Source of the DNA: Naegleria gruberi
Lineage: Eukaryota
Length of the DNA: 64,000 nucleotides
Direction: 5' to 3' (one strand)
Assembly: GCA_000004985.1 (NCBI GenBank)
Contig: GG738875.1
The position numbers and the translations under genes were made by a program. This document shows, piece after piece, positions 8,357 through 51,609 of this stretch. Numbering within the stretch: position 1 is the stretch's first letter; every line of letters begins with the position of its first letter. The notes below the pieces were generated by a model. That model worked only from the letters and a program-made list of their open reading frames with translations, did no database searches and was not told where the DNA came from.

Positions 8357-8429
8357 CTCCCCCTGGTGGGCTCGAACCACCGACCTGCAGATTAACAGTC
8401 TGACGCTCTACCGACTGAGCTAAGGGGGA
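8357..8429 (-). tRNA. tRNA-Asn (anticodon GUU), 73 nt, no intron
   Basis: The reverse complement reads TCCCCCT-TA-GCTCAGTCGGTAGAGC-G-TCAGA-CTGTTAA-TCTGC-AGGTC-GGTGG-TTCGAGC-CCACC-AGGGGGA-G. It has a 7-bp acceptor stem, GCTC/GAGC D-stem, anticodon loop CT-GTT-AA, a GGTTCGAGCCC T-arm and discriminator G. This matches the eukaryotic tRNA-Asn consensus. Confidence 0.9.
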
Positions 8430-9202
8430 CTTCTGTCGTCATTTGTTTTTTAGTATTCGGTTTAATATTTTATCTTCAAGAACAAATAAGCACCAGGAAG
8501 TGGTGTTTATTAAGCACAAGAACAGTCTTTTTCTTTGATGGCTATTTGGCATAGAGTTCAGCTCCTTTTCTCTCATTTTAGGAGTTGTATACTATATTAA
8601 ATCGAAATTAGTGAATTCCATCTCATTATCTGTAAGCAAATTGAAAAGGGAGTCAAATCATTTATTTGAATAGTGAAAGCACCATTTTGAACAACAACCT
8701 TTGATTATTTCTTGCTCCTTGAAAAGATTTGAAAGCACTTAACATGTTGGTCTCCAGATATAGAAGAGTGAAAAGTTATTACCCATAACTACTGAAATGA
8801 ATCTTGTTGAAAGAAATAGGACTAAAGCGATTTTACATTTCATTTATTGAAAGAAAAGGTTCAGAAATACCTCCACAACAAGATGAAATTCTTCGAAAAC
8901 AATTGAAGATAGCATTCAAAAACCACCATACGAAACTACTGATTCTTGCTCAGAACAATTGTGGGGTCCTATTTTGTTAATTGACTTGTTGTTATTGTTA
9001 ATATTTAAATTAGATTAATATTCAAATACTAGGTCGAAACAGTCATTCAGATCCAATATTATGTTTGATTTGTTAATAGTTTATTGAACTTTACATTTTG
9101 AAATGAGGTTGTATAGGTCAACCCAAGTTACAGCCAAGTTCCTCCAAAGAGAAATAATCAACTAATTCCTTTGATGTTTATAATTCAATTCCAATAAAAA
9201 AA

Positions 9203-9956
9203 ATGTCTTCACCAACCTTTACTTTGATTGATGAGAATCCACAAAAAACCATCGATGAAGTTCTCATTGAACAACAAAGCCACAGTGAAAGATTATTGGA
9301 CAAACCAATGGAAAAGGGATTTTCCTTTAAATTTGATTATGTTGCAACCATCGGAAAAACTGGACATGAAGGAAATGGACACGATGAATTTAATAGACCA
9401 GACGATGTGATCATTACAAGAGATAGATATTTAATTGTTGCAGATAAAGAAAATGAAAGATTGCAAGTTTTTATTGAAGATTATTCATTAATTTGGAAAT
9501 ATTTCACAACCATCAAAACTCCTCAAGTGAAACCATACTGTTTAGAATTGAAAGAAAGTGAAAGTGGAGAAGAAACTTTATGGGTCTTGGGTGATCATTC
9601 AAATCAACAAGTGTTGAAATTTTCAAACATTTCACAATTCATTTCTGATATTAACAATGGAAAGGAAACTAAACCAGAACAAGTTGATAAAAAAACTAGC
9701 GGATCATTTGTTAATTTCCAATTTTCAATCACAACAGATAAATTTAAAGGTTGGTCAATTCGTTCAGAACCATACGAACATGAATTGGAAGTTTATGGAG
9801 CTGATTTTGAGATGGTTTTTAAATATGCTAAGGATAAAGGAAGTGGTCCTGGAAATGATCAATTATATGTTCCATGTGGATCATGTATTGATTATAAACA
9901 TGGACACTTTTTGATTTGGTGATTCTGCCAATCACAGAATTCAAATATTCCAATAA
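9203..9956 (+). CDS. NHL-repeat protein; the reading frame is interrupted by an apparent 1-nt frameshift near 9914-9917
   Basis: ATG at 9203 (aaaaaaaATG). NHL-type motif GHEGNGHDEFNRPDDVIITRDRYLIVADKENERLQVF. The ORF stops at 9920-9922 (HFLIW*), but the +2 frame continues ...GDSANHRIQIFQ* to TAA at 9954-9956. That is a textbook NHL motif (V/I-x-DSANHRIQIF), so the terminal blade is split across two frames. Confidence 0.6.
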
Positions 9957-10572
9957 AACCAAAACCAGTATTGAGTCTAATTTCACACTGACAAGGTTAC
10001 AATTTCTTTCAATTCATAATTCTTTCAACAATATCCACTTCAAAGAACAACTTGGTCATCATCGTTCTCTATTGACACAGCCAATCTATCATTATCCATT
10101 CTATATTCCTTCTTTAATAATTTCTAAAGAAATAGTCAAGTGAAATTGAATTTTCCATTCACTGGTGCGTGTTTCTATTACCAATAAACTAGCGAAATAT
10201 ACAATTAACACCTTTACATATAATTTTCCATTCAATTTAAATTTGTCATCCTATTTACTACTATCATGATTTAGTTTAATAGGAAAGAATGTATTTGATT
10301 TTAAGGATTTGACTTCTATCCAAATACATCTATCAATACCATACTCCAACACAAATTCGCTATGGAGTGTTGGTTGGAGTTGAAAATATTGTCATGAAAT
10401 AATAACGGAGCTAGTTGAATAACCGACATTCGTTCAATAACAAGATTATCCAATAAAATAATAATAACAAATTCAATTATTTACATATGATGAAGATGTA
10501 TTGTCTCCATCTAAATAAACAATATGTTTATTATTAATGATACATTTCAATTTACAAGCAACTTTCGTCCAT

Positions 10573-47982: not shown

Positions 47983-48700
47983 TTTTTTGAAGTATCACTT
48001 ATTCGTTGTTGTGAAACCTAACTCCTTGATTCACTCCACAATAATAGAAGAATATTTTCATAATATGAAGAGTTTATTCTTCCGTTGTTACATCTATTGG
48101 TTTCTTCTTGCTGTCAATGAAGCAATAGAGATTACAATAATGTCTTGGTTTAGAAAAGACCAGTTAAATACTCCTTGACATTTAATAAGTAGGGCCTTAT
48201 GGATTCTTAATAAGGTTTTCATAAGCTGAAAATATCTTAACCATTGATTTTACGTCTTGATGGATTGTTATTCAATAAGCATGCATTGATTTTACTGTTG
48301 TTGGACACAATTGAAAACTGACCTCTTGAAATTTTCCTTTCAACAAATGATCTTATTGGTACGTAATAACGAGGGCACACAATCAGGAAGCTAAACCCGC
48401 CAAATAATAGATCTTATCAAAGGCTCTATTCTTAGTAAAACGAGAGAATACCAAGAATAAGAATCTTAATTCAATCCATCACTTGAAGTGTTGTAGATGG
48501 AGAACTCACTGTAAGCCAGCTAACACATTATCCAGGTTGCAAGCAAAGCAAATGGTGTTGCTCGGATTGTTGTTCTTAAAATAAGTTGTTGGCTTTTTTT
48601 TAATTTCATCACTTCAAAAAAATTGGAAGAATACAACATCAAGGATTACTCTTTGCTTGCTCAATTCGTCATCAATTTTATACATTGTACAATAATATAA

Positions 48701-50208
48701 ATGTCTACAACAATTACTTTAAAGTGGAACAAGTCAACTTTTGACAATGTCGAAATTGGGGATTTAAAAACTGGTTTAGATTTCAAGAAGAAATGTCAAG
48801 AATTAACTGGTGTTCATCCTGATAGACAAAAAATCATGGGTTTGGGAGCTGGTATCTTGAAAGATAATCAAGAATTGAGTGCTGTTAAAGTTAAGGCTGG
48901 TCAACTTGTTAGAATGATGGGGTCTGCTGATGAATTACCAGAACCACCAAAGGAAAAAACAGTTTTTATCGAAGATACTGCTAAAGAAAATGGTGATGGT
49001 GAAGTGGTAAGTAATTTTGATTCCGATCACAAATATTCATTTCCTCTTAGCAATATTATCCAGCTGGTTTGGAAAATTTAGGAAATACTTGTTATATGAA
49101 TTCTGCCCTTGAAAGCTTTAGATACGTTCCAGAATTGAGAGAAGCTATTGAACATTTTGATGGATCGTCTGTTAGTGAATTGTTGGAAAAGGATAAGGAA
49201 ATTGCCTCTGAATTGAAATCATTGTATAAGAGATTGGATACTGCTAATGATTCTATTTCACCAATTACATTTTTAGAAGCTTTCAGAAAGGCTTATCCAC
49301 AATTTGCTGAAAAGGAACGTACTGAATTGGGAGAATTTTATTCTCAACAAGACTCTGATGAATTTATTACTAATTTATTAGGATCTTTGGAAAATATGCT
49401 CAAAACTAGTGATCGTAATGTTGTCAAGGATTTATTCGAAGGTGAATTTGATGTCAAGTAAGTTATATTCGAAAGTACTTGTTACTTATATTGCTTTTAC
49501 AGACTTCAATGTACAGAATGTGAAGAAGCTCCAACTGTCACAAAGGAAGCTTGGAAGAAACTTTCATGCTTTATCTCACAACAAGTAAGCAATTTACCTT
49601 ATGGATTACAAAAGAGTTTAGATGGTACTTTGGAAAAAGAATCTCCAACTCTTGGTAAAACTGCTGTATATACTAAAACTCAAAGAATTTCCAAATTGCC
49701 AAATTATTTGGTTGTTAACTTTGTTCGTTTCTTCTGGAAGCAAAAGCAACAAGTTAAGGCTAAGGTTTTGAGAGATGTCGCCTTCCCATCTGTTTTGGAT
49801 ACTTTTGAATTGTGTACTGATGAATACAAGAATAAGTTGAAGGAAACAAGAGAAAAGATGAGATTGGACCGAGAGGAAGAAATGAAAAAGAAGAAGGAAG
49901 AACAATTAAATAATTTGGGACAACAAGCCAAGAAGCAAAAGACTGAAGAAACTGACAAGACACCACTTTATCAAGTCAATGATAGTGGTTGGTTTGAATT
50001 GTGTGCTGTAGTTACTCACAAGGGTAGAGCAGCCAACGAAGGTCACTACGTTGCTTGGGTTAAGAATGATGCTGGACAATGGTTGCAATTTAACGATGAT
50101 GATGTCACTGCTGTTACTGAGGAAGAAGTCAAGAAATTGAGTGGTGGTGGAGATTGGCATACTGCTTATTTGTGTCTCTATCGTAAAGCACGTAAACTCA
50201 ATTTATAA
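48701..50208 (+). CDS. Ubiquitin C-terminal hydrolase USP14/Ubp6; join(48701..49006,49051..49457,49503..50208)
   Basis: Exon 1 is an N-terminal ubiquitin-like domain (MSTTITLKWNKSTFDNVEIGDLK...LVRMMGSADELPEPPKEKTVFIEDT). A GTAAGT donor and a 44-nt intron lead to the Cys box PAGLENLGNTCYMNS. A second 45-nt intron (donor GTAAGT) is followed by CTECEEAPT...CFISQQVSNLPYGLQKSLDGTLEKESPTL... and the His box GHYVAWVK...SGGGDWHTAYLCLY. Colinear with human USP14 throughout. Confidence 0.85.
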
Positions 50209-50280
50209 ATCATTTACATTTTGTCATCACTCTTATTGTCACGATTCAAAAAGAACTTGGTTTATTAAGGTTGTATTGAA

Positions 50281-51609
50281 TTACAATCTCGATCCTCGAC
50301 TTATATCACTCATGGTGTATGAATTATTAAAATCTAAATCCTGATCTTGCGACCACTTGTGTGAAATCCACAACTTGAAATCTCTTGGATCAATAAACAA
50401 ATTCATACGAAATGACTCAATGAATGACTCTCTACTTGCTAATAATGATCCCATCGTATTGCCTCCCCCACCAAATATCATATTCCAAAATCCATCATTC
50501 TTCTTTTGTGATGGATTTTGCATGCCATAAGCATTCTGAACCTTTTGATTGTCTCTAATGAAAAATGTAAGCTTTTTACAATCACACTCAACTGGCAATG
50601 CTTCCTCTGAATGAACCAGCATGATATTAAGATAATCATTGAATTTCTCTACCAAAATTTGATTAATACAGTCGAACTGTTCTGTTGAAAGGGCAATTTC
50701 ACAACTATTACAATTTGTAATGTTGAAAACAACTAGGAAATTATCACAATTCCACACTTGAAAACAAACTCCAACATTGTCCTCAATGAAGCAACCAAGA
50801 TACTTTTCATTGAAAAACAATCCTTCTAAATCCACAAGTTTGCATCCAGAGTAAATATTTTCCATCAAATTCTTGTAACTTTGAAAATTGGTTACAGATC
50901 TTGGATTTAACTTTTGTTTTTGTGTAACACTCAATCCACTCAAAAGTGAAATGATGTTAAGATTGTGTCTTGAGGGTATCATTCCACATGCATCTGCAAA
51001 CGCCGAGTTTCTGTCATCTATCAACATACAATATTGAATGTCAAGTTTCAATTGTAGTTGAGTAAATAGCGAATTGAAAACTGAAAATAAACTTGATGGT
51101 ATAGATGTAAAATTCTCAACCTTATAAACAAGTGCTATTCTAATTTTCTTATTTTGAAACCTAATCTCTCCTACTGTGAATGCAACTCCAAATATATCAA
51201 AATCATTCAAAGAACAGTTTTTCGTGTGGTTTCGTCCATTATCAATCTCCATGTTTGATTGATAATGCATCTTGAGCACAAACTTTTCACTCACCACATC
51301 CAAATTATGACACGGCATGAACCCCAAATCAGTTTCCAATGTTAAAACATTGGCAATATTTGCATCATCCTCCTCTTGTATGACATTCCACTCCCTATCC
51401 ATAAATAAATGTTGATGAGGTTGATGTTCTAATAGAGAATCCACCAATTGTTTAATTTTATTGGCTTTTGGGAGAATCCTCTTGTTGTTGTTAAGTGAAG
51501 AAGCTGCCGGTGGAGAGACAGTATCAGGACATGAAGAGCTCACTGTTTTAAATGTAGATGTGCTGCTGGTTTGATGATGATGTGGCGATGAGGAAGTTGA
51601 AGACCACAT
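50281..51609 (-). CDS. Hypothetical protein (442 aa), single exon
   Basis: ATG at 51609. A Ser/Thr/His-rich N-terminus followed by a globular region. No family recognised. Confidence 0.5.
   Translation of the reverse strand: MWSSTSSSPHHHQTSSTSTFKTVSSSCPDTVSPPAASSLNNNKRILPKANKIKQLVDSLLEHQPHQHLFMDREWNVIQEEDDANIANVLTLETDLGFMPCHNLDVVSEKFVLKMHYQSNMEIDNGRNHTKNCSLNDFDIFGVAFTVGEIRFQNKKIRIALVYKVENFTSIPSSLFSVFNSLFTQLQLKLDIQYCMLIDDRNSAFADACGMIPSRHNLNIISLLSGLSVTQKQKLNPRSVTNFQSYKNLMENIYSGCKLVDLEGLFFNEKYLGCFIEDNVGVCFQVWNCDNFLVVFNITNCNSCEIALSTEQFDCINQILVEKFNDYLNIMLVHSEEALPVECDCKKLTFFIRDNQKVQNAYGMQNPSQKKNDGFWNMIFGGGGNTMGSLLASRESFIESFRMNLFIDPRDFKLWISHKWSQDQDLDFNNSYTMSDISRGSRL

Follow-up and report, generated by a model that had tools for sequence, protein, structure and literature searches.

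A small NHL-repeat gene of Naegleria gruberi loses its reading frame within its last repeat, and the question it raises is whether the gene has been mutated, misread or recoded. The gene lies on contig GG738875.1 (assembly GCA_000004985.1), in a stretch of 64,000 nucleotides (nt) that was analysed as a whole and is called the window here. Its open reading frame (ORF), on the plus strand at 9203-9922, ends inside a sequence that resembles an NHL blade, and the rest of that blade follows in another frame. Comparison with a nearly identical allele indicates that the native gene of this lineage is a single-frame ORF of 250 amino acids (aa), in which the reference carries a 1-nt insertion. An insertion of this kind, real or artefactual, in an otherwise ordinary gene that is decoded without recoding, is very probably what the locus holds.

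The coordinates and the translation of the ORF were confirmed. It encodes 239 aa, and its last codons, CAC TTT TTG ATT TGG TGA, give HGHFLIW followed by the stop at 9920-9922. A database protein of 239 aa (P0001), which has NCBI, UniRef and EukProt accessions, is 100% identical to the ORF over 95% of the query. It is annotated as "predicted protein [Naegleria gruberi]" (NAEGRDRAFT_49910, XP_002675843.1, UniRef100_D2VIX0) on a scaffold of 396,166 bp. The annotated model is the identical 239-aa product and thus ends at the same premature TGA. Entered at 9918, the +1 frame translates as GDSANHRIQIFQ up to a TAA at 9954-9956. The out-of-frame tail, DSANHRIQIFQ with its native TAA, occupies 9921-9956 on the plus strand.

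The 90%-identity cluster of the 239-aa protein contains one other member, a protein of 250 aa (P0003) that ends in HGHFLICDSANHRIQIFQ and a stop. P0003 is encoded on two independently assembled contigs from metagenome run ERR1078381 (PRJEB11402), an ENA contig of 1810 bp (L001) and a Logan contig of 1086 bp (L002). In these two assemblies the Naegleria locus is 97-99% identical to the window. At the site of the lesion the window reads ATTT-GG-TGATTCT and the relative ATTT-G-TGATTCT; in the DNA alignment, ACACTTTTTGATTTGGTGATTCTGCC of the window stands opposite ACACTTTTTGATTT-GTGATTCTGCC of L001 and L002. The window has TTTGGTGA where the relative has TTTGTGA, which identifies one of the two Gs at 9918-9919 as the surplus base, and it is this base that shifts the frame. 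GG versus G is the sole insertion or deletion (indel) across a coding stretch of 754 nt, where the DNA is 98.8% identical. The flanks of the gene, about 880 nt with seven indel events, are 96.6-97.6% identical to the environmental contigs. At least two haplotypes must be present in the sample, since L001 and L002 disagree at 4 sites; each contig carries the single G and the 250-aa ORF.

Once one G is removed, the window encodes a protein of 250 aa with five residue differences from P0003. The 36 nt downstream of the lesion, which make up the lost tail, are 100% identical between the window and the intact allele. Between the repaired window gene and the environmental allele there are 5 non-synonymous and 4 synonymous changes, a ratio of non-synonymous to synonymous polymorphism (pN/pS) of 0.30, and in this comparison the gene has signs of purifying selection in the wider population. 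Four of the five residue differences (Q108K, K110N, Y112C and S121N) cluster in a stretch of 14 residues that opens blade 2 (9524-9564), the remainder of the protein being near-invariant.

A first-pass annotation of the window had proposed that a 1-nt frame correction in the last blade restores a canonical NHL repeat. The proposal is borne out by the environmental allele, which ends 11 residues later, at the stop of the +1 frame, and the positions assigned to the T5 run (9908-9912), to ATTT (9914-9917) and to the stop (9920) are all correct. The same annotation had sought the indel in the homopolymer. A 1-nt indel does exist, but the surplus base belongs to GG. Slippage in the T runs was rejected: the T5 run on the plus strand and the T3 run are of equal length in the window, L001 and L002, and the T5 run is no part of the lesion. 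Skipping a T, as had been suggested, would restore Gly at residue 239, whereas the nearly identical allele has Cys there. Orthologues ending at the same place as the 239-aa product had been named as the observation that would argue against a frame correction. The opposite is seen, the only close relative on record being 250 aa long.

The polarity of the change, an insertion in the reference rather than a loss in the relative, follows from the homology of the tail to NHL repeats. The curated gathering cut-off of the Pfam NHL family (PF01436) is 20 bits. The truncated ORF scores 17.7 bits, below that value, whereas the repaired protein exceeds it at 40.5, 38.4 or 35.0 bits with Cys, Gly or Trp at residue 239, respectively. 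Environmental P0003 reaches 40.3 bits, and the Cys, Gly and P0003 versions each give two matched stretches. The gain contributed by the tail is about 21-23 bits, and the stretch newly matched runs from residue 228 to residue 249, at model positions 8-28 of 28. A HMMER scan of 1.84 billion representative proteins gave 8066 matches, for many of which residues 212-249 of the query, the last blade with its tail, are the best stretch. DSANHRIQIF is also found, letter for letter, in a bacterial-type NHL protein of 344 aa (P0002) that is not a relative.

The tail was also compared with solved structures and with an alignment of family segments. Residues 214-249/250 align to blade 5 of the NHL domain of TRIM71 (SGPGNDQFYVPCGSCIDYKHGHFLICDSANHRIQIF on the query side), a complete NHL blade, and the solved TRIM71 chains terminate in the equivalent strand, with NNRIL followed by I or V and then F. 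The last blade of the intact protein, residues 212-250 (9836-9953 on the plus strand), was delimited from this alignment and from the predicted strands described below, and it spans the frameshift. A hand-made, shallow alignment (A2) was assembled from P0003 and 18 four-blade segments cut from the matches of the representative search. Across these 19 NHL segments D240 is nearly invariant and R245 is invariant. As judged from profile score and alignment, the NHL match of the tail exceeds chance. The frame is thus broken relative to an intact close allele, and the part that is lost is homologous to the NHL family. The native protein of the lineage is 250 aa long and ends in LICDSANHRIQIFQ.

The same evidence bears on the converse reading, in which the functional product is normally 239 aa long and the environmental protein of 250 aa represents a secondary extension or another version of the gene. 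The annotated model does stop at 9922, and the truncated protein would retain about 3.5 blades. However, the extra 11 residues form a textbook NHL strand motif with the invariant Arg and the conserved Asp, which is not what a chance change of frame yields. The 239-aa protein also falls under the Pfam NHL cut-off, and solved NHL domains finish after the equivalent strand. We consider it highly unlikely that the short form is the native one.

A second way to keep the window sequence as it stands is programmed +1 frameshifting of the antizyme type. The antizyme shift site is UCC-UGA-U. At this locus UGG would occupy the P site and UGA the A site (UGG-UGA-U), some ribosomes would skip the U and read GAU, giving HGHFLIW-DSANHRIQIFQ, again 250 aa. 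The site does resemble that of antizyme, since UGA-U follows a sense codon. No stop interrupts the +1 frame before the native one, and the shifted product is of native length and passes the Pfam NHL cut-off at 35.0 bits. A plain 1-nt insertion yields the same pattern, however, and the closest relative, with 98.8% coding identity, encodes the protein in one frame. The two-frame arrangement is therefore not conserved and would have to be very young. Trp at residue 239, which the shift would introduce, gives the lowest of the three scores (35.0, against 40.5 for Cys and 38.4 for Gly), and tRNA-Trp is unable to re-pair in the +1 frame (GGU). No stimulatory RNA element stands out in the 88 nt 3' of UGG-UGA-U when their folding is compared with that of 200 shuffles: the minimum free energy is -10 kcal/mol (z = -1.5), and 15 of the 200 shuffles fold at least as well. 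Moreover, the in-frame allele has the very same sequence downstream.

Programmed recoding is thus regarded as very improbable. The first-pass annotation had ranked it last among its explanations, and that ranking stands. A variant of this reading combines a real GG with an unselected antizyme-like +1 shift by which NEG-M would rescue part of the protein, as a low level of the full-length LIW-DSANHRIQIFQ form. The locus would then be a newborn recoding site, one mutation away from its in-frame ancestor, and we attach next to no probability to it.

Two further candidates were tried and rejected. An intron would have to remove 3n+1 nt, and the only GT...AG segment of that size across the site is a 19-nt one, GTGATTCTGCCAATCACAG. 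Its removal would create a stop (TTG ATT TGA) and take out the conserved DSANHR; apart from one base, the window and the environmental allele are also colinear. Stop read-through, or a variant genetic code, would continue the 0 frame past the TGA into FCQSQNSNIPIKPKPVLSLISH and a further stop, which has no NHL similarity. The base rate of broken frames in the window was uninformative: for every one of 13 other junctions between same-strand ORFs there is a GT-AG intron that could bridge it, and usually there are many candidates (from 1 to 143).

The preferred reading, a 1-nt insertion in a gene of 250 codons, leaves the question of what the truncated product would lack. A single-sequence AlphaFold2 (AF2) model was poor, with a predicted local distance difference test score (pLDDT) of 47, and the model built on the hand-made alignment was used instead (pLDDT 78.9; predicted template modelling score 0.74). 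In this model the final 70 residues have block means of 90-96, and the approximately 45 N-terminal residues are of low confidence. An orphan strand at residues 46-51 precedes the first blade. The predicted strands are at residues 66-71, 77-81, 86-90 and 96-101 in blade 1; 111-118, 124-130, 136-141 and 145-151 in blade 2; 176-179, 184-189, 194-198 and 204-208 in blade 3; and 224-230, 235-240 and 245-249 in blade 4, where pLDDT is 92-96. The predicted fold, a beta-propeller with four-stranded blades, superposes on solved NHL domains. It has four recognisable blades, short of the six-bladed closed propeller found in all of those domains. The alignment rows come from six-blade arrays, and the curvature of the model is therefore unreliable on how a four-blade chain closes. 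A stand-alone NHL protein of four blades is in itself mildly unusual, a point apart from the frameshift. In the model, truncation at residue 239 takes away strand 245-249 together with the Asp/Arg motif, and the last blade becomes one strand short. Truncation would probably weaken or abolish the protein through this incomplete last blade.

Whether the second G is truly present in the DNA of strain NEG-M, or is an error of the consensus, decides between an allele and an artefact. Additional contigs extend the comparison, L003 and L004 covering 48125-50589 of the window and L005 covering 1462-2675. Six single-base indels in about 1.5 kb of non-coding DNA separate the window from the environmental strain (at 8806, 8917, 9196, 48145, 48241 and 48363). 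At about 4 per kb these are far more frequent than plausible Sanger consensus error, so real 1-nt indels must be common between the two lineages. NEG-M is a long-cultured axenic strain. Given such frequent real indels, a frameshift that this strain tolerates, in the final 5% of a gene restricted to its lineage, is somewhat likelier than a consensus error. We therefore infer that the G belongs to NEG-M, and we lean, cautiously, towards a real and recent truncating allele under ordinary decoding. The 36 nt past the lesion are still identical to the intact allele, which argues that the event was recent.

On this account the locus would encode a small four-blade NHL protein of 250 aa, and one extra G at 9918-9919 would shift the frame inside the last blade. 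Cys239 would become Trp and be followed at once by TGA. The last 11 residues, DSANHRIQIFQ, would be lost, and with them one beta-strand and the conserved Asp and Arg of that blade. The allele possibly exists on one NEG-M haplotype only: NEG-M is regarded as diploid and heterozygous (PMC9928731), and the lesion may therefore sit on just one of the two.

Several observations weigh against a real allele. Comparison with the environmental strain over about 3.3 kb of coding DNA yields a single indel, the G at 9918/9919, and a lone lesion in a constrained gene also fits a sequencing error; a consensus error predicts the same picture. In a contig index of read-derived assemblies, neither the 239-aa product nor either of two long neighbouring products had an exact match, and a cluster look-up of two NEG-M-type repaired versions of the protein was likewise without a hit. 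In addition, the argument for functional damage has two sources, homology and a model whose alignment is shallow and hand-made. In the case of a sequencing or assembly error NEG-M would truly have a single G, the gene would be an intact 250-aa ORF and the 239-aa annotation would be an artefact. The single-base nature of the lesion, the perfectly kept tail and the purifying selection on the gene all agree with this, as does the state of the reference, an unfinished whole-genome shotgun draft. The draft genome of N. gruberi (Fritz-Laylin et al., 2010) was reportedly obtained by Sanger sequencing at about 8x. On the other side, GG versus G is no long homopolymer, and multi-fold Sanger data seldom yield indel errors in the consensus (around 1e-4 to 1e-5 per base). 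The abundance of real 1-nt indels between the lineages in unconstrained DNA also speaks against an error. We take an error at this position to be possible, though less likely than a real mutation.

Beyond these two alleles, few relatives of the gene were found. In the HMMER scan of representative proteins the only close relative was P0001; the other matches were generic NHL arrays with 29-45% identity, and no orthologue outside the N. gruberi lineage could be detected beyond generic NHL similarity. No further copies of either allele were found in a scan of JGI metagenome DNA, a protein-seeded JGI metagenome scan or a scan of IMG/VR. In the literature, no paper was found that mentions PRJEB11402 and none on NHL repeats in N. 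gruberi.

The run that supplied the intact allele also matches the window elsewhere. Contigs were fetched for three exact or near-exact matches to window genes, namely the NHL gene (P0003), a ubiquitin ORF and a 14-3-3 ORF, and all three come from ERR1078381. This run thus holds a Naegleria extremely close to NEG-M. Some short proteins of the window are recorded outside the reference annotation. Divergence between the window and the ERR1078381 contigs is mosaic, from 0.08% to about 3%. The 14-3-3 gene (1462-2675, L005) has 1 mismatch in 1214 nt, and the segments 8544-10428 (L001/L002) and 48125-50589 (L003/L004) diverge by about 1.5-4.5% in BLAST alignments with gaps counted. Such a mosaic would fit recombining haplotypes.

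The window is AT-rich, with a GC content of 0.28-0.38, and has many long ORFs on both strands. Upstream of the NHL gene, a gap of about 1 kb separates it from minus-strand ORFs and contains a tRNA-Asn (GTT) gene at 8357-8429 on the minus strand. About 94 nt at 8675-8768 of the window are absent from L001 and are flanked by an imperfect direct repeat, TGAATAGT and TGAAAAGT; the repeat suggests that the difference is a microhomology-mediated deletion or insertion. The environmental contig also has a predicted upstream ORF of 72 aa (156-374 of L001; 8797-8980 of the window), which starts with MNLLKEIGRKRFYISF. In the window an additional G at 8806 and, 111 nt away, the loss of an A at 8917 break this ORF, and only a TTG-started ORF of 58 aa is left. 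Farther downstream, the coding sequence for ubiquitin and UCH (ubiquitin hydrolase) at 48701-50208 (+) runs over three ORFs, at 48701-49081, 49069-49461 and 49630-50208. The region between the second and third of these is presumably an intron, and the environmental contig has a 2-nt indel in it, at 49487.

For users of the reference, these results are of small practical value: NAEGRDRAFT_49910 (XP_002675843.1, 239 aa) should be read as either a truncated allele or an artefact. The 250-aa form is preferable in surveys of NHL or other propeller proteins of the reference proteome. ERR1078381 also offers an independent means of checking other gene models of N. gruberi that look suspicious.

Set beside known NHL beta-propeller domains (PF01436) such as those of TRIM71/LIN-41, TRIM2/3, Brat, Thin and Mei-P26, the Naegleria protein differs in blade number and domain make-up. 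The solved domains are six-bladed whereas it has four recognisable blades, and it has no RING, B-box, coiled-coil or other partner domain. The second-best match in the word index (E = 1.3e-7) was to the cluster of P0002, YncE-like proteins that JGI/IMG names "DNA-binding beta-propeller fold protein YncE". Although P0002 has the identical DSANHRIQIF, it is a full-length propeller of another size with only 29% identity over 39% of the query, and on these figures the match reads as generic repeat similarity, not orthology. Antizyme +1 frameshifting shares with this locus a 0-frame UGA just before the +1 entry codon and a conserved domain that is completed in the +1 frame. In contrast to antizyme, the shift here would be unconserved, without downstream structure or regulatory logic, and a 1-nt insertion is the simpler explanation. 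A further parallel is with strain-specific loss-of-function or frameshift alleles and with the indel artefacts of draft genomes. In these, too, an accessory gene restricted to one lineage has a single-base indel close to its 3' end, and an intact allele is found in a close relative, without secondary decay. No difference from them was seen at this locus, and the pattern is an ordinary one.
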